Shown here one piece after another: positions 3,233 through 63,927 of a DNA stretch of 64,000 nt. Both the position numbers and the translations under genes were made by a program. Origin of the DNA: Candidatus Multivoraceae bacterium (GTDB lineage: Bacteria; Acidobacteriota; Thermoanaerobaculia; Multivoradales; Multivoraceae). Numbering within the stretch: the first letter of the stretch is position 1; the number at the start of each line of letters is the position of its first letter. The stretch lies in the NCBI GenBank assembly GCA_965219625.1, contig OZ244782.1, positions 484,712 through 548,711 of the forward strand. Reading direction: 5' to 3'. The notes below the pieces were generated by a model that did not search any database, was not told where the DNA came from, and saw nothing but the letters and a program-made list of their open reading frames with translations.

Positions 3233-3262
3233 CCACAAATCTTCTCGTTTCTCTATCAGGTA

Positions 3263-3297: not shown

Positions 3298-3376
3298 GCG
3301 TCGGCACCGGGAAGCCGGATGTCCGACGGACAAGGAAGCATGAGACCCAAGAACCTGAATTCAGGAGGACACGAGA

Positions 3377-3843
3377 TGACCCGTAGCCTGATCCGTCACC
3401 GTACGATGAACCGCCCGCCCATCGGCAGGTTCGAGCCGTTCTTCGGCAGAACGATGTTGGACGACCTCGTCGCGCCGGCACTCGCCCGCTTCGTGGGCAA
3501 CGAGGGTCCCGAGGCCGCCGCGATGACTTGGTGGCCTGCCGCCGACTTCACCTTCACCGACGACGAGTACACCCTGACGGTGGACCTTCCGGGGATGACC
3601 CGGGAAGATGTCGAACTCGTCATCGAGGACCACACCCTCGCCCTGTCGGGCGAGCGGCAGTTCGGCCATGAGGATGCGCAGGTGGACCGCGCCGAGCGGC
3701 TGCACGGACGGTTCAGCCGGCGGTTCTCCCTGCCCGCCGACGCGGACACGTCGACCATCAAGGCGGAGTTCAATCATGGCGTGTTGACGATCGCGATCCC
3801 CAAGGCCGAGGAAGCGAGGGCGCGAAAGGTCGAGATCGCCTGA
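3377..3843 (+). CDS. Hsp20/alpha-crystallin family small heat-shock protein
   Basis: 155 aa. Alpha-crystallin domain, with TVDLPGM near its N-terminus and AEFNHGVLTIAIPK near its C-terminus. AGGAGG RBS at 3362-3367 with a 9-nt spacer to the ATG at 3377. Confidence 0.9.
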
Positions 3844-6459: not shown

Positions 6460-6465
6460 TTCAGC

Positions 6466-42343: not shown

Positions 42344-42999
42344 CCGCCCGCCTCAGCGGGAGGCGACGGCGGCTTACTCCCGAGTCGGGATTCCGTACCC
42401 GCCCGGAGCCTTCTTAGATTCGCCCGGTGCTTCGAGATGACGAGCGTCGCGATGAGAAGCGTGCCGACGAACAGCGACGCCGCAGGCGCCGAACCGCCAC
42501 TCTCCCCCGACCCGCCGAGCCACCAGGAGAGGCCGACGATCCCCGGCAGGGACGCCGACGCCGCTACCGAACCCAGGGACACGTAGCGGGTCGCGACGAC
42601 GAGAGCGACGAACACGACGAGGGCGCCCAGCAACGCCCCGGGGACAAGCGGGATGAGCGCGCCGGCCGCGGTCGCCACCCCCTTCCCGCCGCGAAAACCC
42701 AGGAAGATCGGGAACACATGACCCGCCACCGCGGCCACCGCGGCCGCCGCGAGCCACCAGGGGCCGACCTCGAGCGCGAACGCGACGAAGAGAGCAGCCG
42801 TTCCCTTCGCCACGTCCAAGGCAAGCGCCAGCAGCGCCGCCCACTTCCCCGACGCTCGCATCACGTTCGTCGCTCCCGCGCTCCGACTGCCGATCGTCCG
42901 CAGGTCGATGCCGCGATGGACGCGAACGACGAGATAGCTCCAGGGCATCGAGCCGAGCAGGTACGCGGCAATCACCGCGATGAAGCCAGAAGCCGTCAC
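42340..42999 (-). CDS. plsY: glycerol-3-phosphate acyltransferase PlsY
   Basis: GSxNxGATN-like motif (GSRSAGATNVMRASGK) in a multi-TM protein. GTG start at 42999 chosen because it forms a GTGA overlap with the cinA stop. Confidence 0.85.
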   Translation of the reverse strand: MTASGFIAVIAAYLLGSMPWSYLVVRVHRGIDLRTIGSRSAGATNVMRASGKWAALLALALDVAKGTAALFVAFALEVGPWWLAAAAVAAVAGHVFPIFLGFRGGKGVATAAGALIPLVPGALLGALVVFVALVVATRYVSLGSVAASASLPGIVGLSWWLGGSGESGGSAPAASLFVGTLLIATLVISKHRANLRRLRAGTESRLGSKPPSPPAEAGG

Positions 43000-46662: not shown

Positions 46663-49600
46663 TCAACGTTCGAGCCGCCCCCTCGCCGGCGGTTCGCTGC
46701 AGGCGGCGATTCGCGTGAGCTGGATCTCGTCGAACCACGCGTCGCCCTGGTTGTCCCCGTCCCGCGCGGCGCGGATCCGCACACCGCCGACGGAGGCGGG
46801 TATGCACTTCGTCACCGCCCGGCATTCCCACGCTCCGACGGAGCTGGCCACGACGTGCGCGTCCTCGAACGAAGCGTCACGGCCACGACCGTCGTCGAAG
46901 TCGACGAACACGTTGTCGCCCGCGTGCTCGCGCAGCACGCAGGCCGACAACTCGTAGACGCCGCCCTCAACCGGAATCCACTCCGCGGCGACCGCGGAAT
47001 CCGAACCCACGTCGCCGCCGGACACGGCGCCGCGAAGCAACAGGCCCCAGGAACCCGAGTCGGCCGAATCGGCCGAGGAACCCGGCCCGGCAGGCGAACG
47101 CGCAACGACCGCGTCTCCCGAATCCGACGTCCAACCTGGCGCCGCGGACATCCTCACCTCGCCGCCCTCCAACTCGGAAGCAACGTCGTCCAGGCCGCCG
47201 TTCACCACCGCCGTCTTCGGCCAGCCCGGAGAGAACGGATCGAACCACGGCGAACTCGGACGATAGGACGGCACAGGCACGAGCGACTCCTCAACCGCCC
47301 ACCACTCCGCAACTTCCCCCGGACCGGACGCCGAGCGACGCGAATACACCGCGCCACGGCCACGAGCCAGGTAGAACTCGTCGTACGCCTCCGCCCTGCT
47401 CGCATCCGCCCAGAAGCGGACCTCCAGCACGTCCTCGAACGTCAGACCGCCAACCACCGGCGCCGTGAACGACGCGTGGTGAGCGACGACCTCCAGGCGC
47501 ATCGTCGTAGCAAGAGCGCCCGCCTCGTTCCGCAGACGGTTCGACAGGTAACGACCGGTCACCGAACTCTCCAACACGTCGCCTACCGCCATGTAGCGGT
47601 TCATCCACCGGAACGGCCTGTCGAGCGACACGCTCAGGCGATCCGAAGACCCGCCCTCGACCGTGCCCCAGTAGTCCAAGCCGCCTTCCGTCTCCTCGAA
47701 CAGGTCGTACCGATCTCCCCCCGGAGTCCCCAAGAGCGCCATCGGACGGCCCCACAGCTCACCTCGCCAGAAGGACCGAAGCTCGTGGGAGTCCGCGGCA
47801 GGCCACAACCGACCGTCGACCAGGCGGCTCCGCACCCCCGAAGCGCTCCCGTGAGGCGACAGCCAGTACTCGAACATGTCGAACAGGTCGCCCGACGTCG
47901 TCGAGGGCTCGGACGAATCGGATGGCTCCACCAGCCCGGGATCCACTCCGCCGGCACGCGACGACGCGGCGGCCGAACCGACGGCCCCCTCGGACACCTC
48001 GATCGTGAACGTAAGCGTCGCCGAGTTCCCGTTCCCGTCCGACGCCGTGTACGTGTACGCCGTCTCCGCCTGAACCGCCGTCGGCGTACCGGACAACGTC
48101 CGCGTCGACGCGGAGAAACTCACGCCCGCCGGAAGGCCAGGCGTCACCGCGTAACTCAACGCGCCGCCCGTACCGGTCGCCGCCGGCAAGACGACGGACC
48201 CAACCGCCTCGTCCCTCACCCATGTCTGCGCCGCGATCGTCTCGTCCCCGAACGACGGGTCCTCCACCGCGATCGTCACGCTTCCCGTCGACTCGCCGAA
48301 CCACGCCACGCCGTCATGCACCATCTTCCACTCGAACGCATGCGGGCCTACCGTCGACGGCGCCGTGATCTCCAACGTGAAGTCCACCGTCTCTCCCGGC
48401 CCGACGCTTGCCGACACGTCCGCGTCGTCCGCGCTCGCCGGCAGCTCCACACGGTTCAAACCCCACGTCACGTTGTCTTGAGGGTTCTCTGAGCCCAGCC
48501 GGTACCCCTCGGCTTCCGTCCACGTCGTCGTCCCCACATTCTTCATCGTCACCGTCACCGACGCCGTCGAACCCGCCGCCATCTTCGAAGGCACACCGGA
48601 CGTCGACACGAAGGACGCATCGTCCACCAGGACCGCCTCTACCGTCATGCTGAACGTCAACGACGCCGAATCCCCGCCCGCGTCCGTCGCCGTGTACACG
48701 TACGCCGTCGTCGCCATCGCGTCCGTCGGCGTACCGGAGATCGTCCGCGTCGACGCGGAGAAACTCAAACCCGCCGGCAGTGCAGGAGAGAGCGAGTAGC
48801 TCAACGCACCGCCCCTACCGCTTGCCGCCGGCAAAACGACCGCCTCGATTGCCTCATCCTGCACATACGTCGCGTCCGCGATCGTCTGATCACCGAACGA
48901 CGGGTCCTCCACCTCGATCGTCACGCTCCCCGTCGGCTCGCCGAACCACGCCACGCCGTCATGCACCATCCGCCACGCAAACGCGCGCGCGCCGACCGTC
49001 GACGGCGCCGTGATCGTAAACGTAAAGTCCACCGTCGCGTTCGGCACAACGCTCACAGGACCGTCCGCGCTGACCGGCAGATGCGCCCGATTCGTACCCC
49101 ACGTCACGTTGTCCTGAGAATCCTGCGAGCCCAGGCGATACAACTTCGCCTCCGTCCACGTCGTCGTCCCCACATTCTTCATCGTCACCGTCACCGACGC
49201 CGTCGAACCCGCAACCATCTTCCCCGGCACACCCGACCAAGAGACGAACGATGCGTCGTCCACGGGAAACGCCGCCACCCTGATGCTGAACGTCAACGAC
49301 GTCGAATTCCCGGCCCCGTCCGTCGCCGTGTACGTGTACGCCGTCGCCGCTTGAACCACCGTCGGCGTCCCGGACAACGTCCGCGTCGACTCCGTAAACG
49401 TCAGCCCCGCTGGCAGCGGAGGAGTCACCGCGTAACTCAACGCACCGCCCGAACCGCTCGCCGCAGGCAACACGACCGGCTCGATCGGAACGTCCTTCAC
49501 ATACGTCTGGTCGATGATCGTCTGATCACCGAACGATGGGTCCTCCACCTCGATCATCACGCTGCCCGTCGACGAGCCGAACCACGCCACGCCGTCGCGA

Positions 49601-52600
49601 ACCATCCGCCACTCGAACGCATGCGGGCCTACCGTCGACGGCGCCGTGATCTCGAACCTGAACTCCACCGTACCCTTCGGAGGCACGATCACCGGAGCGT
49701 CAACGCTCCCCGGCAGATGCGCCCGATTCGTCCCCCACGTCGTGTTGTCTCGAACGCTCTCCGAACCCAGACGATAAAGCCCCGCCTCGGCCCACGTCGT
49801 CGTCCCCACATTCTCCATCGTCACCGTCACCGTCGCCGTCGAACCCACTGCCATCTTCGAAGGAACCCCGGACGTCGACACGAACGAAGCGTCGTCCACC
49901 GGAATCACCTCCACCTCGATCGCCCCCCCGCTCGGCGTCGACGAGCCGAACCATGCCACGCCGTCACGAACCATCTGCCACACGAAACCGTAGCTCCCAG
50001 CCGCCGACGGCGCCGTGATCGTGAACGTGAACTCCGCCGTCGTGTTCGGCGCCACCTCGCCAGGCAACGGCACCCGGTTCAAACCCCACGTCAGGTTGTC
50101 CTGATTGCCTTGCGAACCCAAGGAGTACCGATCCGACGACCGCCACGTCGTCGTACCCACATTCTCCATCCGCACCGTCACCGACGCCGTCGTACCCGCC
50201 GCCATCTTCGACGGAACCCCAGACGTCGACACGAACAACGCGTCGTCCGCCGACACCGACGCGACCCGAATGTGAAACGCAAGCGACGCCGAGTTCCCGG
50301 CCCCGTCCGTCGCCGTGTACGTGTACTCCGTCTCAGGCATCGTCGCCGTCGGCGTCCCCGACACCGTACGCGTCGACTCCGTGAAACTCACACCCGCCGG
50401 CAGGGCAGGAACGAGCGAGTAGCTCAACGCTCCGCCCGTACCGCTCGCCGCAGGCAACACGACCGGCTCGATCGGAACGTCCTTCACCCACGTCTGGTCG
50501 ACGATCGTCGCGTCGCCGAACGACGGGTCTTCCACCTCGATCGTCACGCTACCCGTCGACGAGCCGAACCACGCGACGCCGTCGCGGACCATCTGCCACT
50601 CGAAAGCTCGACTGCCCGTCGTCGACGGCGCCGTCATCGCCAACGTGAAGTCCACCGTCGTGTTCGGAGGCACGCTGACGGAACGGCCGGGAGCCTTCGG
50701 GTCCGCTGGCAGAGACACCCGATTCACACCCCAGGTCAGATTGTCCTGAACGTTCTGCGAACCCAGGCGATAGGAACCCGTCTCGCTCCACGTCGTCGTC
50801 CCCGCATTCTCCATCGTTACCGTCACCGCGAACGTCGAACCCGCAGCCACCTTCGAAGGTACCCCCGACCAAGACACGAACGAAGCGCCGTCACGAGACA
50901 CCGCCTCCACCGTGATGTGGAACGTCAACGACGCCGAATTCCCCTTCCCGTCCGTCGCCGTGTACGTGTACTCCGTCTTCGGCATCGTCGCCGAAGGAGT
51001 CCCCGACACCGTCCGCGTCGACTCCGTGAAACTCACTCCCGGCGGCAGAACAGGAACGAGCGAGTAGCTCAACGCTCCGCCCGTACCCCTCGCCGCAGGC
51101 AACACGACCGGCTCGATCGGAACGTCCTTCACCCACGTCTGGTCGACGATCGTCGCGTCACCGAACGACGGGTCCTCCACCGCGATCGTCACGCGACCCG
51201 TCGACAAGCCGAACCACGAAACGCCGTCGCGCACCATCTGCCACTCGAAACCGTAGCTACCCACGACCGCCGGCGCCGTGATACCGAACGTGAAGTCAAC
51301 CGTCGCACCCGGAGCCACCTCGCCGGGCAACGGCGCACGATTCCGACCCCACCTCACGTTGTCCTGCGGATCCTGCGAACCCAGACGGTACTCGCCCGAA
51401 GGCGTCCACGTCGTCGTCCCCTCGTTCTTCATCCGCACCGTCACCAAAGACGTCGTACCGGCAACCATCTTCCCAGGCACACCAGACCACGAAACGAACG
51501 ACGCATCGTCCTCCAACGACGCAACGACTTCGATCGTGAACGTGAGCGACGCGGACGAACCAACCCCGTCCGTCGCCGTGTACGTGTACTCCACCGCGTC
51601 CTGCAACTCCGTCGGCGTCCCTGACACCGTACGCGTCGACTCCGAGAAACTCACCCCCGTCGGCAACGCAGGCGTCAGCGAGTAGCTCAAAGCCCCGCCC
51701 GTGCCGCTCGCCGAAGGCAACACGACCGGCTCAAGGGGCACGTCCTTCACCAGCGTTTGATCCGGAATCGTCCAGTCGCCGAACGACGGGTCTTCCACCT
51801 CGATCGTCACGCTACCCGTCGACGAGCCGAACCACGCGACGCCGTCGCGGACCATCTGCCACTCGAAAGCTCGACTGCCCGTCGTCGACGGCGCCGTCAT
51901 CGCCAACGTGAAGTCCACCGTCGTGTTCGGAGGCACGCTGACGGAACGGCCGGGAGCCTTCGGGTCCGCTGGCAGAGACACCCGATTCACACCCCAGGTC
52001 AGATTGTCCTGAACGTTCTGCGAACCCAGGCGATAGGAACCCGTCTCGCTCCACGTCGTCGTCCCCGCATTCTCCATCGTCACCGTCACCGCGAACGTCG
52101 AACCCGCAGCCACCTTCGAAGGTACCCCCGACCAAGACACGAACGAAGCGCCGTCACGAGACACCGCCTCCACCGTGATGTGGAACGTCAACGACGCCGA
52201 ATTCCCGGCCCCGTCCGTCGCCGTGTACGTGTACTCCGTCTTCGGCATCGTCGCCGAAGGAGTCCCCGACACCGTCCGCGTCGACTCGGAGAAACTCACC
52301 CCCGTCGGCAGAGCAGGCGTCAGCGAATAGCCCAACGCTCCGCCCGTACCCCTCGCCGCAGGCAACACGACCGGCTCGATCGGAACGTCCTTCACCCACG
52401 TCTGGTCGACGATCGTCGCGTCACCGAACGACGGGTCCTCCACCGCGATCGTCACGCGACCCGTCGACAAGCCGAACCACGAAACGCCGTCGCGCACCAT
52501 CTGCCACTCGAAACCGTAGCTACCCACGACCGCCGGCGCCGTGATACCGAACGTGAAGTCAACCGTCGCACCCGGAGCCACCTCGCCGGGCAACGGCGCA

Positions 52601-55600
52601 CGATTCCGACCCCACCTCACGTTGTCCTGCGGATCCTGCGAACCCAGACGGTACTCGCCCGAAGGCGTCCACGTCGTCGTCCCCTCGTTCTTCATCCGCA
52701 CCGTCACCAAAGACGTCGTACCGGCAACCATCTTCCCAGGCACACCAGACCACGAAACGAACGACGCGTCGTCCACAACGAACGCCGCCACCTCAAGCGA
52801 AAACGGAAGCTCAGCCGCGTCACCGTCACGGTCCGTCGACATGTACGTGTACCCCGTCTCCGGCTGAACCTCCGTCGGCGTGCCAGAAAGCACCCGCGTC
52901 AAGCCGTCGAACTCCAAACCCGAAGGCAGCGACTCGACAACCTCGTACGTCAGCTCCCCGTTCCCGCCAACCGCCGCCGGCAGCGTCACCGGAACCATCG
53001 GCTCGTTCAGGGTGAGGAACTGCGGAACGATCGTCTGAACCCCGAACTCCGGCGCCGAGTCCTCCTCCACCGCGATCAACAACGGGAGCGAATCCTCGTC
53101 TCCGTCACGGTCCCCAACCGTGTACGCATACTCCGTCGCCGGCTGAACCGCCGTCGGCGTGCCGGAAAGCACTCGCGTCGCGGCCTCGAACTCCAAACCC
53201 GAAGGCAGCGACTCGACGATCGCGTACGTCAGCTCCCCGTTCCCGGCGACCGCGGACGGCAGCGTCACCGGCGACATCGGCTTGTTCAGGCTGAGGAACA
53301 GCGGATCGATCATCGTGACCTCGAACCCAGGAGCGGAGTCCCCTTCCACCTCGATGCTGACGACAAGCGACGCCTCGTCGCTGTCGCGGTCCGTCGCCGC
53401 GAACGTGTAGTCCGTCGCCGGCTGGGCCGTCGTCGGCAGGCCGGAGAGACCGCACGGCGGGGTCGGGTCGAGCGTCACACCCGCCGGCAACGCGGGAGAC
53501 TCCGGCGCCACGGAACATGTCACGTCCGCATTCCCGCCCGTCACGCCGAGGCTCAGGTCGACCGACGTCCTGCCTTCCGTCCACACGACCGGACTCTCGA
53601 CCGCGCCGAACGTCGGCGTCGTGTCCGGTTCCACCTCGATCGTCAACAGGAGCCAATCCTCGTCACCATCGCGGTCCGCAACCGTGTACGTGTAAGGCGT
53701 CTCCGGCTGCACCGCCGTCGGCGTGCCGGAAAGCGCCCGCGTCGTAGCCTCGAAGGCCAAACCCGAAGGCAGCGACTCGACGATCGCGTACGCCAGCTCC
53801 CCGTTCCCGGCGACGGCCGACGGCAGCGTCACCGGCGACATCGGCTTGTCCTGGCTCAGGATCAGCGGAGCGATCGACTCGTCTTCGAACCCAGGAGCGG
53901 AGTCCCCTTCCACCTCGATGCTGACGACAAGCGACGCCTCGTCGCCGTCGCGGTCCGTCGCCGCGAACGTGTAGTCCGTCGCCGGCTGGGCCGTCGTCGG
54001 CAGGCCGGAGAGACCGCACGGCGGGGTCGGGTCGAGCGTCACACCCGCCGGCAACGCGGGAGACTCCGGAGTCACGGAACATGTCACGTCCGCATTCCCG
54101 CCCGTCACGCCAAGGCTCAGGTCGACCGACGTCCTGCCTTCCGTCCACACGAGCGGACTCTCGACCGCGCCGAACGTCGGCGTCGTGTCCGGCTCCACCT
54201 CGATGCTGACGACGAGCGTCGCCGTGTCCCCGTCGTAGTCCGTCGCCGTGAACGTGTAGTCCTCCGCCCCTTGAACCGCCGTCGGCGTACCCGAGAGAAT
54301 GCACGGAGCGGTCGGCTCGAGCGTCACGCCCGAGGGCAGCGCGGGAGACTCCGACGTCAACGTGCATGTCGGCCCGAAATTGCCGTCCTCCAGGCCGAGA
54401 CTCACCTCGACCGGTCGGTTCTCCGTCCAGACCTGACTCCCGACCTGCCCGAACACCGGAGACGTGTCCGGCACGACGCCGATCGTGAACTCCCGCGAAG
54501 CAACGTCACCGTCGTCGTCCGTTGCCGTCCACGTGTACGTCCTCGGCGCCTGCGGCGCCGTCGGAACACCCGAAATCACCCGGCCCGACCGGGACATCCC
54601 AGCCGGCAGAACGGCGGAGAGACTGTACGTCAACGGCTGGTTCCCGCCCGTCGCCGCCGGCAGCGTCATCGAGCCCGGATAACCGACGATCCACGTCCGC
54701 GAGGGGAACCACTCCAGGACCGGCGTCTTGTCTTCCAAGACCGTCACGGTCACCGTCGCGGATTGGTAAACCTCGGGGCCGGCCAGCGTGATCAACCATA
54801 TGCCGGCCTCGTGGCCATATGCCGGCCTCGTGGCCGCTCACCGACACCTGCTGCGGCGAAGAGTAGTTCGATGCGTCGAAGTCCAGGCTGGAGGGACTCG
54901 CCGACACCTTCGAGATGTCCTCCTCGGTCACCGTCACCGTAGCGCCACCCGTGGACGGCGGCTCTGACAGGGACGCTCCGAAGGTCACCGACTCCCCCTC
55001 GATCACGGTCAAGTACAGAGGTTCCGGCGGACCGAGATCATCCAAACGAATCGTACCTAAATCAATGTACGGGCGCGGTTGGTCGACCACCGTTACGTCC
55101 ACCGTCACTGTCGAGTCGCACCCGCCGCCGATTGAAGTCAGGGTGACCGAGGTCTGCTCGTCGTTCCGGTCGTCGTCCCACACACCTTCCAGCGTAATCT
55201 GCTGCGCGGCCGCACTCGTGAATTGGAGGGGCGAATCGGAGGCGTTCTTCAGCTTGACCGCGCCCAGATCGTTGATTACGACGGGCACATTTACCCGGCC
55301 TGTCGGCGTCCTGGACAGCGAGACGGTCAAGTCGGCTTCGCCGCCTTCGACCAAGACCAGCGGATTCGGCGACACGACCAGACTGCACGGCGGCCCGACC
55401 GTGATGTCGAACGTCACGACGCCCGCGTCGGTCGGGGCCGTGTTGCCGTCCGCGTCCGTCGCCGTGAACGTGTACGCCGCCGTGTCCTCATCCGCAGACG
55501 GCGTCCCCGACACCGTGCATGACGAAGCGTCCAGCGACACCCCTGCCGGCAATGCCGGCGCGTTCGAGCAGGTCACATCTCCATTGCCGCCCGTCACCCC

Positions 55601-56272
55601 GAGGTCCAGATCGACAGCCACACCCGTCGTCCAGTCCTGATCCGCGATGCTCCCGAACGTCGGCACCGTGTCCGTACCCACCCAGATCGTCCGGGCCGAC
55701 GTCGAGTCGCCGAACGGCGTCGAGCCGACGAAACCGGAAACCGCGGGCGAGGACGCAACAACAGGTCCCGGATTCGGGCCCGGGTTCGTCTCGGTGATCC
55801 TGCGCATGCGAAACTGAAAGCTGTAGCTCCCAGCGGTCGAAGGCGCCGTGATCGTGAACGTGAAGTCGTGGACGGCGTCCGGCGCCACGGTGCCGAAGAC
55901 CGGCACGCCGGCCACTGTCGACCCGCTGTCGAGACCCCAGGTATCGCCGACCCAAAACAACGTAAAGAACGTCACTGTGTTCGGGAGGAACCGAGTCGAC
56001 CAGCTCTGCGTCCCCGTGTTCTTCATGCGGACCGTCACTGTCCTCGTCTCGCCGGGCGACATGAACTCCGACGCGGACGGCAAGCCGGTCCAGGACACGA
56101 ACTCCGCATCGTCGGCGCCCATCGCTGGCGACACCATGAAGCCGAGCGCCAGACAAGCCGCCGCGACCGCCACAAGCCGAGTCCCACCGTGGTGCTGCAT
56201 CGTTCTGCTCCCGCTCATCATCCGCCTCCTCGCGTCTGATTCACTACCGCTCATCCGAACCGTCCTCTTCAA
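46663..56272 (-). CDS. giant secreted cell-surface repeat protein (~3,200 aa): signal peptide, FW domains alternating with CADG/He_PIG Ig-like domains, CBM4/9-like C-terminus; frameshifted here by a 19-bp tandem duplication
   Basis: ORFs 54506-56272 and 46663-54795 fuse in frame (…SVSGHEAGIW|LITLAGPEVYQ…) when one copy of the 19-bp repeat at 54797-54834 is removed. N-terminal signal peptide (MKRTVRMSGSES…LALGFMVSPAMGA). At least 20 repeats of the LPxGxxFxxxTRxxSGTPTxxQxxTxYTYTATDxxGxxAS type (dystroglycan-type cadherin-like). Repeats with four or five conserved Trp residues (ASFVSWSGVP…NxGTTTW…YRLGSQ…WG…FEWQMVRDGVxWFG) match the FW/NBR1-like domain. The C-terminus ends …GDAWFDEIQL, like CBM4/9 modules. 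Confidence 0.8.
50512..53037. repeat. two tandem near-identical 1,263-bp (421-aa) units inside the giant gene; each unit encodes FW-CADG-FW-CADG
   Basis: Shadow ORFs 50549-50872/51812-52135, 50891-51136/52154-52399 and 51296-51490/52559-52753 are pairwise near-identical with a constant 1,263-bp offset. The encoded protein shows two ~421-aa blocks that are almost identical. Unit boundaries are approximate. Confidence 0.7.
54797..54834. repeat. perfect 19-bp tandem duplication (CATATGCCGGCCTCGTGGC x2) inside the giant gene, causing a +19 frameshift
   Basis: Units at 54797-54815 and 54816-54834 are identical. Deleting one unit restores a single reading frame across 46663-56272. Confidence 0.9.
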
Positions 56273-58320
56273 CTACGCCCAGCCCGCCAGCCGGCGCACC
56301 GACTTCGCCCGACCGCGCCTCGCACACCTCCGAAAACGCGGTCACGTCGACCACCGCGGCAGACGGTTTGCCGGCCTCCCGTCTGTATCTCTTGGACTCA
56401 TACGTCTCCAGGTCCAAGACACCGAGAGAGAGCCGCAGGTCCGTCGCCGAGGCCGCGAGCACCCAATGGTGACCGTTCACCGCACAGCCGTCCAGCACCT
56501 TGACGAGCACCTCCCAATTCTCCGGGCCGAAGAAGTAGACGATGCCCGACTCGTCCGTGCCTACAGAGGCTACCCTCGCGCCTATACGCTCCCCCGTCTC
56601 TGACCAGTAGTCCACCCAGACCGAGTAACGACGATTCCGGAGACACAGCCTCGTTTCCGTCGGCACGCACGGGCCGACCGCCTCCTCCGCCACAACAGAA
56701 ACCGGCGCCTCGGCCGCCGCCGACCAGCCGCTCCCATCCGACAACGAAGCAGCAGCGGCGGCAGACGCCGCCCCAGCCTCCGAGCCGTCGCAGGCCCTCG
56801 GAAACGCGTTCACGTCGACGATCGCCGGCGCCGGAGACCCCGGCTCGTTCTCGTACGCGCGGAACGCACCCGTCGCCGTGTCCGTTACCCGAATCCGGTA
56901 CCCGAGGTCCGTCGTCGACGCCCCGAGCACCCACACCCGGCCGTTCACCGAACAACCGTCGAGCACCTTGATCAAGACCTCCCAGTTCTCAGGGTCAAAG
57001 AAAGACAGCAACCCCGAGTCGTTCGTACCCACGGGAACGACCGCCGCCCGCCCCGAATCCCCGTCCAGGCTCCACCACTCCGCCGTCACCTCGAAACGGG
57101 AATCCCGAAGGCAACGCGTCTCCCCGTCCGCAGCGCACGTCCCCGCCGGAGACGCCGCCTCGACGAACACCGTCCGCGAAGCGGATGACGAATCCGAACC
57201 GTCGCTAAACGTCAGAACCACTTCATAGAACCCCGGGGAGGACCAGGAGTGGACCGGCGACTCCAGCCGAGACGTCGTCCCATCGCCGAAGTCCCACGTC
57301 CGCTCCGTCGCTGAAGCGTCGCTCGTATCGACGAACGTGACCGGTTCGCCCGTCACCGTGCGGCAGAGCTCCGCCCCCGCACAAGGCGCACCGAAGTCGA
57401 ACGAAGGCGCAGGAATCGCAACCGTACGCGCACGCACCGTCGCCGGCGGACCGGCGCCGCGCCCCGTCCACGCCCGCACCTGGAACGCGTACTCCCTACC
57501 CGGGTCGAGCCCCGTCGCCCGGTAGCTCCCGGATTCGTTCGGCACCGTCTTCCAGCGGTCCTCCGCAACGTCGAACGGAAGCTCCCGCGCCGGCTTCCAA
57601 CGAACCTCCTGCCGGCCTGCCGTAATCGGCGATTCCACTTCCCATGTCAGATCGACCGCCACGCTCAAGGCCGACGCCGAAAGACCAACGATCTTCGGCG
57701 GCGGAGGGCGCCAGGAACTCCGAGAGTAGCCGCGATCGTTGAACGCGAACACGCGGAACATCTTCCCCGCAGGCACGACGGCCGTCTCCACGTCCGCGGA
57801 CACGACCAGCGCCCTCCTCCAGATTTCGGCGCCATTGCTGACCTGGACTTCAAAGCCCGTCTCGTCGTCCGAGTTGTCGCGCCAGCGAAGCCGCACTGTG
57901 TCACCGAGCCGCTCTTCCGTAACGCCCGACGGCGCCTCAGGCCCGAAACCCCGCGAACCCAGCGTCAGCCGGCCGTATGAAGCTGAACTGCTCTTGCCGG
58001 GGCGATGGGCGACGGCGGTGAACACATAGCGGCCGCCGCGCGCCAAGTTCTCGAAGTCCACCCGACCGCGACCCTCGGCGACCTGAACCGAATCGCCCCA
58101 CCCCTCCAAACTCGCGAAAACCGAGTGAGACTCGGCCTCTGCGTCGGGCGCCCAGGAAACCCGTGCCGTCGTCGGACCGGCGGCGGTCACCGCAAAGCCC
58201 GCGACGCCGAGCGCGGCGTCTTCATCGCCCGAAGGCAACGTCACGACATCGCTGCTCTCGGATTCGCCCCACTTGTTCCACGCGACCACCTGCACGCCGT
58301 ACTCCGCGTTCGCGTCACGC
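56135..58320. repeat. segmental duplication, copy A (3' ~2.2 kb of the metalloprotease gene plus the first 138 nt of the giant gene)
   Basis: Near-identical to 60440-62587 at a 4,305-bp offset (identical shadow ORFs 56398-56955 / 60703-61260). Identity is 100% over the 3' ~1.3 kb and decays toward the 5' side. Confidence 0.85.
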
Positions 58321-60134
58321 CCAGGCACGAAGCCGAAGAACCGAAAGGACTCGCTGTTCGCCGGCGCCTCTCTCCTGAAGACCACCTCGCCGGCCCGCAG
58401 GAGGCGCACATCGAAGCCCGTTTCATTGTCCGAATTGTCCCGCCAACGGACATCCAAGCTGTTCGGCGGGAACGTCACCGAAACGTCCGAAGGCGCCGCA
58501 ATCGGATCGCCAGGCAACCAGATTCCAGCCCAGTCGCTCCACAGCGACCGAGCCGAGCCGACCAACGAACGCACCCGGAAGTGGTAGATGCCAGGAAGGT
58601 CTCCTCCCCCGAAAGACCACTCCGCCTCCGTCCGCCCCTCAGCGCGCCGGATGTCCTGCCACCCCGTCAGCCTGTTCACGCGCTCCACCTCGTAGCCGTC
58701 CCCGTCCGCGGCGCTGTCTTCCCAGCTCAAGCGAGCCGACGAACCGTCCCGTTGCAACCGAACTCCGGTCGGCTGAGCCGGGATGTCCGCCGGCGGCAAG
58801 TAATCGCTGTACCGCACGCCGACGTGGACCGTCTCCCGCAGCAAACGCTCGTTGTCCCGCTCGCCTTCGATCCCCAACACCGCCCCGTACAAACGAAGCC
58901 GCGGCGTCGAGTAGAACGGCTCGGTCTGGCCGCTCAGGCTCATCGCCGTACCCAAGGCCGGCATCGCGTCGTAATCCACATGGCCATATGCATACGGCCA
59001 CCGGCTCGGCGCCCGCCAACCTGGCGGTTGGTGGCCAGCGCCCAGACCGTGGCCCACCTCGTGGACGAACGTCGCAGCGTAGTCACCGCCGCACGCCGAC
59101 GGGTGGTTCGACGTATAGCCGCGGGCATAGGGAGAGAAGCTCTCCGCCGTAAAGAAGGGGCGCAACCATCCGTGTAAACCGCAGCCCGCCACCCCCGGCA
59201 GCGACCCACTCTCCCCTGTAAACAGGTGCACCAGGTCCGCCCGATGCTCGTGACGTAACCGCTGGAGCTCCCCGTCCCAGACGATCAGGTCGATCAGGCC
59301 GATTCCCGCGTCCAACTCCGGCCTGCTCAGATCCCGCCCCGCACGGTCCAGCGTCGACGAAGCCTCGACGACGTGCACGATGCGGGGCGTCACCTCAAGG
59401 CCGTTGTTCCGGAACACGAGCGATAAGTAATCGGCCGCGTGCTGGATCGCAATCTCCGCTCCGCCGATGGGCGCCCAGTACTTCGCAGCCTCCTTCGTGT
59501 ACGCGACGAGGATGTCCAGGTAATCGTGATCGCGGTGGCTCTGATGGCTCGCCGTCCCGCGCGGCGCATCCGCGCCGCGGCCAGCCGCATTCGCACGGCT
59601 CTCCGCCCCGACGCCCGCCGCGGCCTCCTCCTCTTGCTCCACACCGCACCACGGCTCCCCTTGACCCGGCCCGGCCCCGCCCAAGGGCGACATCCCGCCA
59701 AGGCCGTCCGAAGCCGAATGGATCCGATACGCACCGCCCCCAGGAGCCCCGAAACGCCCGATCAGCCGCCCTTCGTGAATCGTCAGGACGACCGTGTCGT
59801 ACCCGGCCTCGCGGTTCCCCCCGAACCAGACCCCATCCCCGTTTCCCCGGTCCTCGAAGGCGGAACGTTCGGCGTAGATCACATCACCGTCCGGCGTCGG
59901 CGCCTCGAGAACCAGGGGAGCGCTACGAAGAAGATCCAAGTCCGCCTGAATCGCAGTCACCGGCGCCGGACCCATCGATCCCCCGCCCTCCACGGACGAC
60001 GCTTCCGCCACGGAAGGCAAGAGCGTCAGCAAACGCTGAGCCTCCACCGGCAACGCCGCCAGCCAGACGAACACCACGGCGAACGGCAGAGCCGCGAGCC
60101 GGCGAACAGCGGGCAGGGGGCGCGGATTGGACAT
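56244..60134 (-). CDS. secreted reprolysin-like zinc metalloprotease with Fn3 repeats, a PKD domain and twinned C-terminal domains of unknown family (paralog A)
   Basis: Signal peptide (MSNPRPLPAVRRLAALPFAVVFVWLAALPVEAQ; ATG at 60134 preferred over the GTG at 60158). HEVGHGLGAGHQ with the Met-turn AMSLSG. Fn3 repeats. PKD (WDFGDGTTS…GFYEVVLTFSDG). Two C-terminal ~115-aa repeats (CLRDSRFEV…SFFDPENWEVLIKVLDGCSVNGRVW…; CLRNRRYSV…YFFGPENWEVLVKVLDGCAVNGHHW…). The stop overlaps the giant-gene start by 29 nt. Confidence 0.8.
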   Translation of the reverse strand: MSNPRPLPAVRRLAALPFAVVFVWLAALPVEAQRLLTLLPSVAEASSVEGGGSMGPAPVTAIQADLDLLRSAPLVLEAPTPDGDVIYAERSAFEDRGNGDGVWFGGNREAGYDTVVLTIHEGRLIGRFGAPGGGAYRIHSASDGLGGMSPLGGAGPGQGEPWCGVEQEEEAAAGVGAESRANAAGRGADAPRGTASHQSHRDHDYLDILVAYTKEAAKYWAPIGGAEIAIQHAADYLSLVFRNNGLEVTPRIVHVVEASSTLDRAGRDLSRPELDAGIGLIDLIVWDGELQRLRHEHRADLVHLFTGESGSLPGVAGCGLHGWLRPFFTAESFSPYARGYTSNHPSACGGDYAATFVHEVGHGLGAGHQPPGWRAPSRWPYAYGHVDYDAMPALGTAMSLSGQTEPFYSTPRLRLYGAVLGIEGERDNERLLRETVHVGVRYSDYLPPADIPAQPTGVRLQRDGSSARLSWEDSAADGDGYEVERVNRLTGWQDIRRAEGRTEAEWSFGGGDLPGIYHFRVRSLVGSARSLWSDWAGIWLPGDPIAAPSDVSVTFPPNSLDVRWRDNSDNETGFDVRLLRAGEVVFRREAPANSESFRFFGFVPGRDANAEYGVQVVAWNKWGESESSDVVTLPSGDEDAALGVAGFAVTAAGPTTARVSWAPDAEAESHSVFASLEGWGDSVQVAEGRGRVDFENLARGGRYVFTAVAHRPGKSSSASYGRLTLGSRGFGPEAPSGVTEERLGDTVRLRWRDNSDDETGFEVQVSNGAEIWRRALVVSADVETAVVPAGKMFRVFAFNDRGYSRSSWRPPPPKIVGLSASALSVAVDLTWEVESPITAGRQEVRWKPARELPFDVAEDRWKTVPNESGSYRATGLDPGREYAFQVRAWTGRGAGPPATVRARTVAIPAPSFDFGAPCAGAELCRTVTGEPVTFVDTSDASATERTWDFGDGTTSRLESPVHSWSSPGFYEVVLTFSDGSDSSSASRTVFVEAASPAGTCAADGETRCLRDSRFEVTAEWWSLDGDSGRAAVVPVGTNDSGLLSFFDPENWEVLIKVLDGCSVNGRVWVLGASTTDLGYRIRVTDTATGAFRAYENEPGSPAPAIVDVNAFPRACDGSEAGAASAAAAASLSDGSGWSAAAEAPVSVVAEEAVGPCVPTETRLCLRNRRYSVWVDYWSETGERIGARVASVGTDESGIVYFFGPENWEVLVKVLDGCAVNGHHWVLAASATDLRLSLGVLDLETYESKRYRREAGKPSAAVVDVTAFSEVCEARSGEVGAPAGGLGVVEEDGSDER

Positions 60135-60301
60135 TTCGACTGAAAACCACCTTAGCACCCCTGCACGCCTTTCCCCACAGGAGCTGCGAGAAACCGCCGA
60201 CAGCCATGCCTGTCAAGCTCGTGGCGACGGCGCTGCCCGTTACGGAAGCGCTCGCAAACCTCCCGGCCCGCCACCAGGGGCACCAGCCAGTTGCCGGCGT
60301 T

Positions 60302-60577
60302 CTATTCCCTCTCCCACGTGGTCGTTCCCGTGTTCGACGCGACGACCGTCACCGTCGCCGACCCGCCGGGAGCGATGAAGTCCGGAAGAACGGGTTCCGT
60401 CACGATCGCCGCATTGTCTGCGCCGCGGACGGCCGTCGACATGAAGCCGAGCGCCAGACAAGCCGCCGCGACCGCCACAAGCCGAGTCCCACCGTGGTGC
60501 TGCATCGTTCTGCTCCCGCTCATCATCCGCCTCCTCGCGTCTGATTCACTACCGCTCATCCGAACCGTCCTCTTCAA
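60302..60577 (-). pseudogene. truncated remnant of the giant gene's 5' end (signal peptide + partial FW domain, 91 aa) created by the segmental duplication
   Basis: The first 46 codons are identical to the giant gene start (MKRTVRMSGSES…LALGFM). It then diverges (…ASNTGTTTWERE*) and stops. It overlaps the upstream paralog B stop by 29 nt, like the parental arrangement. Confidence 0.6.
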
Positions 60578-62587
60578 CTACGCCCAGCCCGCCAGCCGGC
60601 GCACCGACTTCGCCCGACCGCGCCTCGCACACCTCCGAAAACGCGGTCACGTCGACCACCGCGGCAGACGGTTTGCCGGCCTCCCGTCTGTATCTCTTGG
60701 ACTCATACGTCTCCAGGTCCAAGACACCGAGAGAGAGCCGCAGGTCCGTCGCCGAGGCCGCGAGCACCCAATGGTGACCGTTCACCGCACAGCCGTCCAG
60801 CACCTTGACGAGCACCTCCCAATTCTCCGGGCCGAAGAAGTAGACGATGCCCGACTCGTCCGTGCCTACAGAGGCTACCCTCGCGCCTATACGCTCCCCC
60901 GTCTCTGACCAGTAGTCCACCCAGACCGAGTAACGACGATTCCGGAGACACAGCCTCGTTTCCGTCGGCACGCACGGGCCGACCGCCTCCTCCGCCACAA
61001 CAGAAACCGGCGCCTCGGCCGCCGCCGACCAGCCGCTCCCATCCGACAACGAAGCAGCAGCGGCGGCAGACGCCGCCCCAGCCTCCGAGCCGTCGCAGGC
61101 CCTCGGAAACGCGTTCACGTCGACGATCGCCGGCGCCGGAGACCCCGGCTCGTTCTCGTACGCGCGGAACGCACCCGTCGCCGTGTCCGTTACCCGAATC
61201 CGGTACCCGAGGTCCGTCGTCGACGCCCCGAGCACCCACACCCGGCCGTTCACCGAACAACCGTCGAGCACCTTGATCAAGACTTCCCAGTTCTCAGGGC
61301 CGAAGAAAGACAGCAGGCCGGAATCGTTCGTACCCACGGGAACGACCGCCGCCCGCCCCGAATCCCCGTCCAGGCTCCACCACTCCGCCGTCACCTCGAA
61401 CCGGGAGTCCCGAAGGCAACGCGTCTCCCCGTCCGCAGCGCACGTCCCCGCCGGAGACGCCGCCTCGACGAACACCGTCCGCGAAGCGGATGACGAACCC
61501 GAACCGTCGCTCACCGTCAAGACGACCTCGTAGAAACCCGGCGTAGACCACGAGTGGACCGGAGACCGCAAACGTGACGTCGTCCCGTCGCCGAAGTCCC
61601 ACGTCCACTCCCTCGCCGAGGAATCGCTCTCGTCGACGAATGTCACCGGCTCGCCCGTCACCGTGCGGCAGAGCTCGGAACCCGCGCACGGCGCCCCGAA
61701 GTCGAACGACGCCGCGGGAATCGAGGCTGTCCGCGCACGGACCGTCACCGGCGGGCCGGCGCCCCGCAACGTCCACGCCCGCACCTGGAACGCGTACTCC
61801 CTACCCGGGTCGAGCCCCGTCGCCCGATAGCTCCCGGATTTGTTCGGCACCGTCTTCCAGCGGTCCTCCGCAACGTCGAACGGAAGCTCCCGCGCCGGCT
61901 TCCAACGAACCTCCTGCCGGCCTGCCGTAATCAGCGATTCCACTTCCCATGTCAGATCGACCGCCACGCTCAAGGCCGACGCCGAAAGACCAACGATCTT
62001 CGGCGGCGGAGGACGCCAGGAACTCCGAGAGTAGCCGCGATCGTTGAACGCGAAGACGCGGAACATCTTCCCCGCAGGCACGACGGCCGTCTCCACGTCC
62101 GCGGACACGACCAGCGCCCTCCTCCAGATTTCGGCGCCATTGCTGACCTGGACTTCAAAGCCCGTCTCGTCGTCCGAGTTGTCGCGCCAGCGAAGCCGCA
62201 CTGTGTCCCCGAGCCGCTCTACCGTAACGCCCGACGGCGCCTCAGGCCCGAAACCCCGCGAACCCAGCGTCAGCCGGCTGTATGAGGCTAAACTACTGCT
62301 GCCGGAGCGGTGGGCGGAAATCGAAAACACATAGCGGCCTCCGCGCGCCAGGTTCTCGAAGTCCACCCGACCGCGACCCTCGCCAACCCGAACCGAATCG
62401 GAGGACCACCCGTCCAAACTCGGCCGAACCCAGTGATAGTCGGCCTCTGCGTCAGGCACCCAGGAAACCCGCGCCGTCGTCGGACCGACGGCCGTCACCG
62501 TCAAGCTCGCGACGCCGGGCAAGACCTCCGCATCGCCCGTAGGCAACGTCACGACATCGCTGCTCTTGGATTCGCCCCACTTGTTCC
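60440..62587. repeat. segmental duplication, copy B
   Basis: See copy A. Copy B continues for ~48 bp after the IS insertion (63929-63976), then diverges from copy A. Confidence 0.85.
60549..62587 (-). pseudogene. reprolysin-like metalloprotease paralog B, 3' portion; interrupted by an ISL3 insertion
   Basis: C-terminal 430 aa are 100% identical to paralog A. The PKD and Fn3 regions are progressively divergent. The reading frame runs into the IS at 62588. Homologous sequence resumes after the IS at 63929 and continues past the window end. Confidence 0.75.
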
Positions 62588-63927
62588 GGGTCTTCAGGCT
62601 GTTGTGTGGGGAGCGCGCCACGCGGTTAGTCGCCGGTGACCCATAGACTGGCGGGATGAAGAGTGCGAGGACGTTCGAGAGGCTGTTGGGGATCAAGCCG
62701 CCTTGGCGGGTGCGGGAGGTGGTGCTCCGTATGGACGAGCCGCATCCGCGACGTCGCGGCGCGGTGGTTGGCGGCACGGTGGAGATTCACGTCGAGCATC
62801 GTGGGGAGACCCGCTGCCCCGAGTGCGGCGAGCGGTGTCCGGGCTACGACAGCAGACACCGCAGGTGGCGGCATTTGGACACGATGCAGCACCAGACGCG
62901 TGTCCACGCGGAGGTGCCTCGGGTGCGCTGCGTCGAGCATGGCGTACTCCAGTTGAAGGTGCCTTGGGCGGACGAGGGTTCTCGTTTCACGGCGCTGTTC
63001 GAGGCAGAGGCCATCGGCTGGCTTCGTGACGCGAGCGTTCAGGCGGTGGCGCGACGCATGGGTCTGAGCTGGGATCAGGCGGCGGGGATTCAGCGCCGGG
63101 CAGTGGATCGCGGCCTTTCGCGGCGCCGGTTGCGGCCGCCGCGGCTGCTGGGCGTGGACGAGACGGCGTTTCGGAGGCGACACGAGTACGTGACGGTGGT
63201 CAACGACCTGGAGCGAGGCGTGGTGGCCCATGTGGCCGACGGTCGCGGCCGGTCGGCCATCGACGGCTACTTCGAGGGTCTGGGCGAGACGACCTGCGCG
63301 GGCATCGAGCAGGTGGCGATGGACATGTGGCCGGCGTACATCTCTTCGGTGAAGGCGTACACGAACGCGGTGATCGTGCACGACCGGTTCCACATCGTCG
63401 CGCACCTGAACCACGCCGTGGACCTGGTTCGGCGCGCCGAGCAGCGGGAGTTGCTTGAGGCAGGCGATCCGCGTCTGAAGCGAAGCCGCTACCTGTGGTT
63501 GATGGGGAAGGGCCGCATGAACCGCTCGCAGCGGCGACGTTTCGCTGCTCTTCGCACGAGTCACCTTCGCGTGGCTCGGGCCTGGGCGATCAAGGAGATG
63601 GCGCGGGACTCGTGGGGCTATGCGAGCCGCGGTTGGGCAGAGCGGCGCTGGAAGCGCTGGTACGGCTGGGCGGTCCGCAGCCGTTTGGCGCCGATCAAGC
63701 AAGTGGCCAAGATGATCAGGGATCACTGGGAGGCCGTCATCAACGCCGCCGTGTCCAGCATCTCCAGCGCCAGCGCCGAGGGCATCAACGCGAGGATCCA
63801 GGAGATCAAGCGAAGAGCGCACGGCTAGCGAAACCGAGAGCACTTCCGCCTCGCCATCTACTTCCATCTCGGCGGACTCGATTTGACTCCCGATTCACTG
63901 CAAGCCCACACACAACCCTGAAGCGCC
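62588..63927 (+). mobile_element. ISL3-family insertion sequence (1,340 bp) with imperfect ~24-bp terminal inverted repeats and an 8-bp target-site duplication CTTGTTCC
   Basis: IRL is GGGTCTTCAGGCTGTTGTGTGGGG (62588-62611). The reverse complement of IRR is GGCGCTTCAGGGTTGTGTGTGGGC (63904-63927). Direct repeats CTTGTTCC sit at 62580-62587 and 63928-63935. Flanking sequence is contiguous with paralog A's homologous site. Confidence 0.85.
62656..63828 (+). CDS. ISL3-family transposase
   Basis: 390 aa. N-terminal zinc-finger (CPECGERCPGYDSRHRRWRHLD) and the LGVDETAFRRRH…DMWPAY…HDRFHIVAHLNHAVD core, which are typical of ISL3 transposases. Confidence 0.9.
   Translation: MKSARTFERLLGIKPPWRVREVVLRMDEPHPRRRGAVVGGTVEIHVEHRGETRCPECGERCPGYDSRHRRWRHLDTMQHQTRVHAEVPRVRCVEHGVLQLKVPWADEGSRFTALFEAEAIGWLRDASVQAVARRMGLSWDQAAGIQRRAVDRGLSRRRLRPPRLLGVDETAFRRRHEYVTVVNDLERGVVAHVADGRGRSAIDGYFEGLGETTCAGIEQVAMDMWPAYISSVKAYTNAVIVHDRFHIVAHLNHAVDLVRRAEQRELLEAGDPRLKRSRYLWLMGKGRMNRSQRRRFAALRTSHLRVARAWAIKEMARDSWGYASRGWAERRWKRWYGWAVRSRLAPIKQVAKMIRDHWEAVINAAVSSISSASAEGINARIQEIKRRAHG

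Follow-up and report, generated by a model that had tools for sequence, protein, structure and literature searches.

Architecture of the giant gene

The window analyzed here, a 64-kb stretch of the genome of a Candidatus Multivoraceae bacterium, carries on its reverse strand a giant gene coding for tandem Ig-like domains (Table 1); GC content is 65-72%. In the assembly, a perfect tandem duplication of 19 bp breaks the gene's reading frame; when one copy is deleted, the two open reading frames on either side (54506-56272 and 46663-54795) join as a single frame of 3,196 codons. The protein then spans 3,179 aa in the order F-p(x8)-FpFpFpFpF-FpFpFp (F, FW; p, He_PIG), followed by a C-terminal head. 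Its N-terminus, MMSGSRTMQHHGGTRLVAVAAACLALGFMVSPAMG..., read from the ATG at 56221, is Sec-signal-peptide-like as judged by eye. Programmed frameshifting was considered for the duplication and rejected: it is an exact tandem copy with flanking 2-nt microhomology, and in the relatives L001 and P0014 a single frame continues across the site. Because the duplication disrupts the gene upstream in the assembly, this allele probably does not yield the complete protein. A promoter and terminator scan across the gene region returned nothing exceeding shuffled expectation, and the window yielded no tRNA genes.

Table 1. Features of the giant gene and of the DNA just upstream, in window coordinates
Feature	Coordinates	Strand	Description
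Whole giant gene	46663..56221	-	~9.6 kb; ATG at 56221; frameshift at 54796-54835
Upstream region, start codon, and signal-peptide coding part	56135..56340	-	100% identical to 60440-60645 (206 nt)
19-bp tandem duplication	54796..54835	-	Perfect, CCATATGCCGGCCTCGTGG, 2.1 copies; shifts the reading frame
N-terminal He_PIG-only array	52771..54675	-	Contains a second near-identical pair
Main FW/He_PIG array	47989..52770	-	Eight FW and seven He_PIG; FW5 and FW6 adjacent, with no He_PIG between
N-proximal near-identical tract	51775..52767	-	FW1, He_PIG Pa, FW2, first 7 codons (EDPSFGD) of Pb; ORF aa 677-1007
Diverged spacer between tracts	51505..51774	-	Most of He_PIG unit Pb (full unit 51508-51795)
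C-proximal near-identical tract	50512..51504	-	FW3, He_PIG Pc, FW4, first 7 codons of Pd; ORF aa 1098-1428
Divergence island inside the tract	51025..51069 (partner 52288-52332)	-	45 nt; 11 of the 15 mismatches; 75.6% identity
He_PIG unit Pd, after the second tract	50245..50532	-	78% identical to Pb, 88-89% to Pa and Pc
Unique C-terminal head	46663..47901	-	~410 aa; no Pfam/NCBIfam match; modeled with AlphaFold2

Both repeated domains are recognized with scores far above threshold. The FW (N_BRCA1_IG) profile PF16158 matches eight stretches with 195.4 bits against a cut-off of 28, and the tryptophans of the TTTW, xWG, xW[QRK]M, and WFG motifs are kept in 8/8 aligned units. The profile for He_PIG, a putative Ig domain (PF05345), matches 14 stretches (387.6 bits; cut-off 24), and these are similar in sequence to the cadherin-like modules of SraP (4M03; E = 2e-8). 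Units of the main array typically share 72-82% nucleotide and 64-78% amino acid identity. For the head, a 10-sequence alignment matched nothing meaningful among Protein Data Bank sequences and gave an unusable AlphaFold2 model (pLDDT 44); once stand-alone homologs were added, a usable all-beta model was obtained (pLDDT 85.9), the best structural matches of which are carbohydrate-binding modules (CBMs). The head is thus putatively CBM-like by its predicted fold, the reference class being the beta-jelly-roll CBM4/9/16/22 type. With an apparent signal peptide, a long stalk of alternating FW and He_PIG domains, and a CBM-like C-terminal head, the product would be a secreted, fibrillar-adhesin-like protein, and its function may be adhesin-like. 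No anchor domain or motif for the cell surface was found by Pfam or NCBIfam, and a surface location is an assumption.

Two near-identical tracts at a fixed spacing

Within the main array, 50512-51504 and 51775-52767 form a direct repeat with 98.5% identity: 15 mismatches over 993 nt, or 331 codons encoding FW/He_PIG/FW. The two are offset by exactly 1,263 nt, or 421 codons, which keeps them in frame. Stretches free of any mismatch extend for 306, 125, 78, and 435 nt, while the longest perfect matches in other module pairs reach only 16-71 nt. At the background paralog identity of ~78%, a 435-nt perfect run has a probability of ~1e-47, and chance is excluded as the source of the identity. Tandem Repeats Finder was silent on this repeat because its longest period is 500 nt.

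The original prediction had described two consecutive near-identical units of 1,263 bp. The period is exact and in frame, but only 993 nt of each unit are near-identical; a stretch of 270 nt (51505-51774 versus 52768-53037) is 59.5% identical in the phase chosen there, and its counterpart in the other phase 76-78%. Consequently, the full units as drawn (50512-51774 versus 51775-53037) are 89.7% identical, slightly below the ~90% under which that prediction itself saw its case for recombination weakened, whereas the 993-nt core lies far above it. Further elements of that description hold as given: each 1,263-nt unit does encode FW/He_PIG/FW/He_PIG, up to phase rotation, and the protein does repeat long blocks verbatim, with FW1 versus FW3 and FW2 versus FW4 at 100% amino acid identity and the quoted VSRDGASFVSWSGVPSKVAAGSTFAVTVTMENAGTTTW found twice. 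Shadow ORFs likewise recur at a constant offset (five pairs at +1263, e.g., 50549-50872 and 51812-52135), a trivial consequence of the DNA being identical.

The edges of the repeat are sharp. In the identity profile at offset 1,263, blocks at 100% fall abruptly to ~76% and ~60% at 50511/50512 and 51504/51505. The matrix of nucleotide identities between units is correspondingly bimodal, with FW1/FW3 and FW2/FW4 at 99.7% and Pa/Pc at 95.1%, as against 72-82% for the other pairs. Pb, which fills most of the space between the tracts, has a best paralog within the window that is only ~78-81% identical, while the likeness of Pd to Pa and Pc points to an older, partial homogenization.

The differences between the tracts are themselves patchy. 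Eleven of the 15 are packed into a 45-nt island, a clustering reached in 0/200,000 permutations. Identity in the island is at the background level between paralogs, while outside it the tracts are 99.6% identical. Pc agrees with Pd at 8/11 of the island's differing sites, and Pa with Pb at 8/11. Inspection led us to reject an origin like that of a diversity-generating retroelement for the island, whose 11 substitutions are mixed in type and without adenine specificity.

Signs of homogenization appear to recur at the locus and in its relatives. The He_PIG-only array holds a pair (53321-53628 and 53885-54192) offset by 564 nt with 5 mismatches in 308 nt (98.4%). Just upstream, 56135-58279 and 60440-62587 form a 2,150-nt direct repeat of 94.5% identity with the 206-nt perfect block at one end. 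Arrays within relatives are 86-93% identical, and FW units group by genome rather than by position.

Origin of the repeat

We consider it reasonably probable that the repeat, in a gene for a secreted, fibrillar-adhesin-like protein, arose when older units underwent recent and patchy gene conversion, rather than through a fresh tandem duplication. The starting state would have been two four-domain superunits (FW/He_PIG/FW/He_PIG, 1,263 nt each) already ~25% diverged, which a recent non-reciprocal homologous recombination would then have homogenized over ~1 kb. The tract would open at DDASFVS, the start motif of the FW domain, and close just past EDPSFGD, the start motif of He_PIG; the 45-nt island and one triplet would have escaped conversion or been re-converted from neighboring units. 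Gene conversion as the mechanism is inferred from the shape of the tract. One observation counts against it: an especially conserved motif is seen at only one of the two boundaries, with conservation of 0.95 at the He_PIG start and just 0.87 at the FW start.

Either one unequal crossover or a newly made tandem duplication would have to leave identity across the entire period, in this case 1,263 nt. The conversion reading is preferred because the observed tract falls short of that length, Pb lacks a close donor, synonymous divergence of the FW pairs is very low, and the residual differences are clustered in an island at background identity. A fresh duplication of the whole superunit through unequal crossover or slippage, followed by replacement or divergence of Pb or Pd, would account for the exact in-frame period (1,263 = 3 x 421) and the perfectly duplicated domain order, and gain and loss of units is clearly evident in the family. 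Nevertheless, we regard it as rather unlikely, given that it predicts 1,263 nt of identity where 993 nt with sharp boundaries are observed, that replacement of Pb requires a donor and none more than ~81% identical is present within the window, and that point divergence cannot yield 22-40% over 270 nt adjoining 0.4% over 948 nt. A variant in which one He_PIG unit was replaced after the duplication from a since-lost donor is an alternative.

Assembly collapse, raised as a concern by the original prediction, is a legitimate worry for such a repeat. Short reads do not span perfect stretches of 435 and 306 nt; the path from tract through Pb to tract would form a cycle in the assembly graph, the traversals of which short reads alone would not count; and homologs in public assemblies are often fragmentary or show frame breaks. 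The number of cycles of tract plus Pb might therefore differ from two, or polishing with mis-mapped reads might have equalized similar copies. At least two tract copies must nonetheless exist, because the unique Pb has tract on either side, and 15 fixed differences anchor the two copies. Other long repeats in the window (2.15 kb at 94.5%; 308 nt at 98%) were traversed without a break, the contigs of the relatives measure 0.7-4.9 Mb and so hint at long-read data, at least for those relatives, and polishing does not equalize sequences diverged by 25%. An artefact of this kind is accordingly judged unlikely.

The least probable explanation by far is that two domain triplets of identical function were kept the same by strong purifying selection, with no recent exchange of DNA. 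The 100% amino acid identity of FW1/FW3 and FW2/FW4 is what it would predict, but selection on the protein cannot account for the identity of the tract, because synonymous sites are identical too: the homogenized FW pairs have a dS of 0.012 and 0.011 with dN = 0, while non-homogenized unit pairs have a dS of 0.3-0.7. The latter are only moderately constrained (dN/dS 0.35-0.7), and the gene is frameshifted in the assembly. The synonymous-site data effectively refute this explanation.

The 435- and 306-nt perfect matches are by far the gene's best substrates for unequal crossover, and such a crossover between the tracts would add or remove exactly 421 aa, or four domains, in frame. Crossover may still be taking place in the population.

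Turnover of the array among relatives

Homologs that share the C-terminal head have 3-9 FW and 2-15 He_PIG domains in 1,539-3,179 aa. The close relative P0014 has flanks that are 65-98% identical to those of the window gene and a central array that is only 45-50% identical, with unit-sized indels and 6 FW units as against 9; its flanks are orthologous and its central array only paralog-like. The claim that recombination acts on these repeats finds support in the 435- and 306-nt perfect matches, the mosaic differences, the variation of array length among homologs, and the remodeled array of the relative, and recombination-driven turnover of the array is thus supported indirectly. The array-length variation is seen between distinct relatives and not between strains.

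The further suggestion of in vivo length variation of a surface protein presupposes an intact gene, whereas the assembled one is frameshifted upstream of the repeats by the 19-bp duplication. L001, L002, and L003 likewise carry broken copies; these and the window allele are each disrupted in a different way, and the flanking genes are intact. It is therefore doubtful that length variation has been selected for in this lineage.

Searching for homologs of the repeat superunit yielded no match above 60% identity, and an exact look-up of three window proteins gave no match. A genome-contig scan found one distant match, in a Vicinamibacteraceae MAG (41% identity), and a metagenome scan a single fragment (44% identity). 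The distant relatives belong to the Vicinamibacteraceae MAG and to myxobacterial-type genomes.

Comparison with known repeat-rich surface proteins

Among the closest parallels are the Periscope Proteins (Whelan et al. 2021, PMC8201768; review PMC9704523), a group of bacterial surface proteins of variable length that includes SasG/Aap, Rib/Alpha C, Sgo_0707, and CdrA. Like these, the window gene encodes a long, predicted secreted protein of tandem Ig-like domains with a distinct putative ligand-binding domain at one end, some of its repeats have very high DNA identity that makes them substrates for homologous recombination, and repeat number differs among its relatives; its two alternating domain types resemble the E-G5 pattern of SasG. 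In contrast to the Periscope Proteins, high identity is confined to one three-domain pair (98.5% over 993 nt) and the 308-nt pair (98.4%) rather than extending over the whole array: only 2/8 modules are near-identical and the others share 72-82% of their nucleotides. The identical domains are never adjacent, with three other domains between them, there is no identified anchor, and the putative binding head is C-terminal. Moreover, variation is known here between distinct relatives only, and the window allele is frameshifted. The Periscope literature itself warns that short reads fail to resolve such repeats (PMC8201768; PMC9704523).

The protein also resembles the fibrillar adhesin-like proteins (Monzon et al. 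2021, PMC8286594) in its predicted stalk-and-head architecture, with He_PIG/E-set Ig-like domains in the stalk and a non-repetitive terminal domain. About half of the proteins in that study have no known anchor, as is the case here. Unlike them, its head lies outside the catalogued Pfam adhesive domains and is CBM-like by predicted fold only, and FW is not counted among the classical stalk families. The FW units match the four-tryptophan domain of NBR1/ILRUN (PF16158), with eight of them well above threshold and the tryptophans kept, and FW domains have been reported in bacterial proteins too (PMC9582228). In eukaryotes, FW occurs once in an autophagy receptor and serves there to bind cargo, whereas that of the window is a repeated, predicted extracellular Ig-like unit, and there is no evidence for a function common to the two.

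A further comparison is with concerted evolution, by intragenic gene conversion or unequal crossover, in repeat-containing surface genes. Size variation of the streptococcal M protein through recombination between intragenic repeats is described by Hollingshead et al. (1987), as cited in PMC9704523. Here, too, repeats are homogenized at the DNA level, including synonymous sites, in a mosaic fashion; units of the family cluster by genome; and central units turn over while the edges are conserved. The difference from cases of the M protein type is that the conversion tract is deduced from one sequence.

Significance

Recent copying between repeats is ordinary for genes of this kind and would not surprise specialists in bacterial surface proteins. 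The locus nevertheless offers a clean, small case of intragenic concerted evolution, with a sharp-bordered conversion tract that encloses an unconverted island, and also displays turnover of the central array beside conserved edges and lineage-specific homogenization. For annotation and comparison, the region from 46.6 to 56.3 kb is best treated as one frameshifted ~9.6-kb gene, in place of a TTG-initiated protein of 2,710 aa. A single assembly is no safe basis for judging its array length, or even whether the gene is intact.

More speculatively, the gene may be a contingency locus of an uncultured high-GC bacterium, in which an FW/He_PIG stalk bearing a glycan-binding head is extended, shortened, and re-patterned by frequent conversion and crossover in the central array and the gene is switched off, possibly reversibly, by short duplications or indels. 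We consider this very unlikely; if true, it would mean a Periscope-like system in this lineage and in a domain pair (with the bacterial FW) that has no known function. More generally, these observations provide a first functional sketch of a rare, unannotated family, in which a stalk of bacterial FW and He_PIG domains would carry a head with a predicted CBM-like fold.

Extent of the near-identical tracts

The giant gene on the minus strand encodes, by unit mapping from the N to the C terminus, seven He_PIG-only units, a main array of FW (N_BRCA1_IG) and He_PIG (P) units in the order FW1-Pa-FW2-Pb-FW3-Pc-FW4-Pd-FW5-FW6-Pe-FW7-Pf-FW8-Pg, a linker, and a unique domain of ~410 aa. Self-comparison of the main array at an offset of 1,263 nt yields two tracts of 993 nt that differ by 15 mismatches (98.5% identity) and share perfect runs of 306, 125, 78, and 435 nt; given a background identity of ~78%, the probability of the 435-nt run is roughly 1e-47. 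One tract spans FW1-Pa-FW2 and the other FW3-Pc-FW4, both extending seven codons (EDPSFGD) into the next He_PIG unit; between them lie 270 nt of Pb. Identity falls abruptly on both sides of the C-proximal tract. The original prediction had placed here two near-identical tandem units (50512-51774 and 51775-53037); this holds for the 993-nt core, but over the full units identity is only 89.7%. The period of 1,263 nt, in frame at 421 codons, was borne out, as were the protein blocks repeated verbatim (FW1/FW3 and FW2/FW4 are 100% identical in amino acids) and the shadow ORFs at a constant offset. The observation is correct but was overstated. The repeat exceeds the 500-nt period limit of Tandem Repeats Finder and was therefore missed by it; the automated repeat search returned it only as 300-nt pieces.

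Coordinates of features in and around the giant gene
Feature	Coordinates	Strand	Description
ORF as called	46663-54795	minus	2,710 aa, TTG "start", 14 He_PIG and 8 N_BRCA1_IG (FW) domains
ORF joined on frame restoration	54506-56272
19-bp tandem duplication	54796-54835		CCATATGCCGGCCTCGTGG, perfect, 2.1 copies, at apparent ORF start
FW5	49906-50244
FW6	49546-49893
N-proximal tract	51775-52767		993 nt
C-proximal tract	50512-51504		993 nt
Island	51025-51069		45 nt, within C-proximal tract
Segment below C-proximal tract	49930-50511		~76% identity to sequence at +1263
Segment above C-proximal tract	51505-51774		~60% identity to sequence at +1263
Second near-identical pair	53321-53628 and 53885-54192		offset 564 nt, 5 mismatches in 308 nt
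Wider extent of second pair	53042-53640 and 53606-54204		92% identity
Reprolysin/fn3/PKD gene	56244-60158		next ORF upstream; Reprolysin-like, fn3, and PKD domains
fn3/PKD gene	60549-62777
Long direct repeat	56135-58279 and 60440-62587		2,150 nt, 94.5% identity
Identical part of long repeat	56135-56340 and 60440-60645		100% identity
9-bp tandem repeat	42725-42758		GCCACCGCG, 3.7 copies

Origin of the near-identity

Nucleotide identities between the FW and He_PIG units of the giant gene are bimodal: they reach 99.7% in FW1/FW3 and FW2/FW4 and 95.1% in Pa/Pc, with Pd at 88-89% to Pa or Pc, Pb/Pd at 78%, and all other pairs at 72-82%. By the Nei-Gojobori method, the homogenised FW pairs have dS values of 0.012 and 0.011 with dN = 0, as against dS of 0.3-0.7 and dN/dS of 0.35-0.7 in the other pairs. 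Selection was rejected as the source of the identity, as synonymous sites are near-identical too. A simple fresh duplication, or a single unequal crossover of flanking paralogs, predicts an identity tract of 1,263 nt and was rejected because only 993 nt are identical. No donor for Pb with more than ~81% identity was found anywhere in the window. The residual differences between the tracts are far from evenly spread: 11 of the 15 lie in one 45-nt island, a clustering seen in 0 of 200,000 permutations, and another three occupy consecutive positions. Inside the island, identity is 75.6%, the background level of the paralogs, as opposed to 99.6% outside it; at its 11 differing sites, Pc equals Pd in eight and Pa equals Pb in eight. 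On this sequence evidence, the simplest reading of the tract would be a gene conversion of ~1 kb between two older superunits; the island may have escaped it, or may stem from subsequent micro-conversions by neighbouring units. Downstream, the border of the tract lies just past the EDPSFGD motif (conservation 0.95), among the most conserved nucleotide stretches of the units; upstream, it falls at the DDASFVS motif, which is only moderately conserved (0.87).

The original prediction also regarded the repeat as a possible site of assembly collapse, in which case the true number of cycles of tract plus Pb, the quantity that a short-read assembler could miscount, would differ from that assembled. 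Pb is unique and has a tract on both sides; therefore, at least two tracts exist, and the 15 fixed differences between them would help to anchor reads. Moreover, the window passes through other long repeats without breaking and the contigs of relatives are megabase-sized, so that we estimate a collapse to be unlikely.

Array turnover among relatives

Relatives of the C-terminal domain are few (13 found). Three loci on long contigs (L001 to L003) share a common synteny of a Reprolysin/fn3/PKD gene, a He_PIG/FW gene, and the C-terminal domain, with main arrays of 5 FW units in L003, ~5-6 in L002, and ~2-3 in L001, against 8 in the window. The L003 copy is broken by a 1-nt indel (9130-9260), that of L001 by an internal deletion that is out of frame and fuses FW position ~33 to DPSFGD (9840-10010), and that of L002 (2700-10200) by at least 10 frame changes, with neighbouring genes intact; these breaks represent either genuine decay or errors of the consensus within the repeats. 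An exhaustive profile search recovered intact full-length homologs of 1,539-2,829 aa, in which FW units number 3-7 and He_PIG units 2-14. In the close relative P0014 (2,530 aa, on a 3.7-Mb contig), the flanks are 65-98% identical to the window protein (aa 481-780 and 2100-3179 of its restored frame), and the centre, opposite aa ~780-2100, is only 45-50% identical, with unit-sized indels. The two near-identical pairs lie in this central region, as does the odd FW5, which is missing from P0014 in the protein alignment and reflects either an insertion in the window lineage or a deletion in that of P0014. FW5 adjoins FW6 without a He_PIG unit between them, breaking the alternation. FW units group by genome, those of the window being 72-82% identical mutually and only 65-76% to any unit of L001 to L003, and the relatives have homogenised arrays of their own, one with a period of 315 nt (92.6% over 4.85 kb) and another with a period of 627 nt (86%). 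Together, these comparisons show the pattern typical of concerted evolution, in which the middle of the array turns over and its edges are conserved.

Among FW-He_PIG modules, M1 and M3 share a perfect match of up to 435 nt and M2 and M4 one of up to 306 nt, with only 16-71 nt in every other pair. RecA-dependent recombination becomes much more frequent as perfect homology lengthens and much rarer as sequences diverge, which would make the two tracts the preferred sites of unequal exchange. One exchange would add or remove 1,263 nt, that is, 421 aa or four domains, with the frame and the FW/He_PIG alternation kept. The predicted recombination hotspot is supported on evolutionary time scales by the array turnover and genome-wise clustering of FW units, in a comparison of distinct relatives.

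Frameshift and neighbouring repeats

The perfect 19-bp duplication frameshifts the giant gene. Deletion of one copy joins the upstream ORF to the giant ORF in a single frame of 3,196 codons with a signal-peptide-like start at 56221; read by eye, its N-terminus (MMSGSRTMQHHGGTRLVAVAAACLALGFMVSPAMG/ADD) resembles a Sec signal peptide. L001 and P0014 read through the site in one frame; therefore, the product of the assembled allele would be limited to a secreted N-terminal piece with ~470 native residues and an out-of-frame tail. Given this disruption, the "gene" of 2,710 aa that starts at TTG is an ORF-calling artefact.

The next ORF upstream is a separate gene with its own signal-peptide-like start, and its product has weak similarity to the metzincin Mep72. 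The long direct repeat joins the 3' halves of this gene and of the fn3/PKD gene, both of secreted type, and extends into the 5' region of the giant gene; its second copy runs on as a truncated stub (signal peptide and FW-like start) ended by a stop codon. L001 has a similar layout (3142-3799 versus 6447-7104, 91.8%). The second near-identical pair of the giant gene sits in the He_PIG-only N-terminal array, and part of its second copy (aa 798-888) is missing from P0014. The 9-bp tandem repeat lies outside the giant gene, in a region of overlapping ORFs (42.3-43.3 kb).

Relationship to known systems

The closest concept is the Periscope Protein/fibrillar adhesin class, in which high DNA identity of tandem domain repeats has been proposed to drive length variation via homologous recombination and whose repeats short reads are known not to resolve (PMC8201768, PMC9704523, PMC8286594). 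The window locus behaves like such a gene in part. However, only a minority of its units are near-identical, no anchor was found in its product, the allele is frameshifted, and the variation known here lies between relatives rather than between strains, for which reasons membership in the class is not established. The 315-nt-period array, which belongs to a paralogous giant He_PIG/FW gene of L002 (16171-21316), is much more Periscope-like than that of the window.

The He_PIG part of the protein is similar to the cadherin-like modules in SraP, a staphylococcal adhesin (4M03, E = 2e-8). FW domains have been described in NBR1 and ILRUN; they also occur in bacteria, without known function there (PMC9582228). 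The C-terminal domain had no sequence match in Pfam, NCBIfam, or PDB; it is also found as stand-alone secreted proteins of ~410-430 aa, four of which have CBM_4_9 matches, all sub-threshold. The phenomenon seen in the near-identical tracts is an ordinary one; the protein family that shows it is poorly known. Our working model of the window protein is a secreted fibrillar protein that would combine an Ig-like stalk with a putative glycan-binding head.
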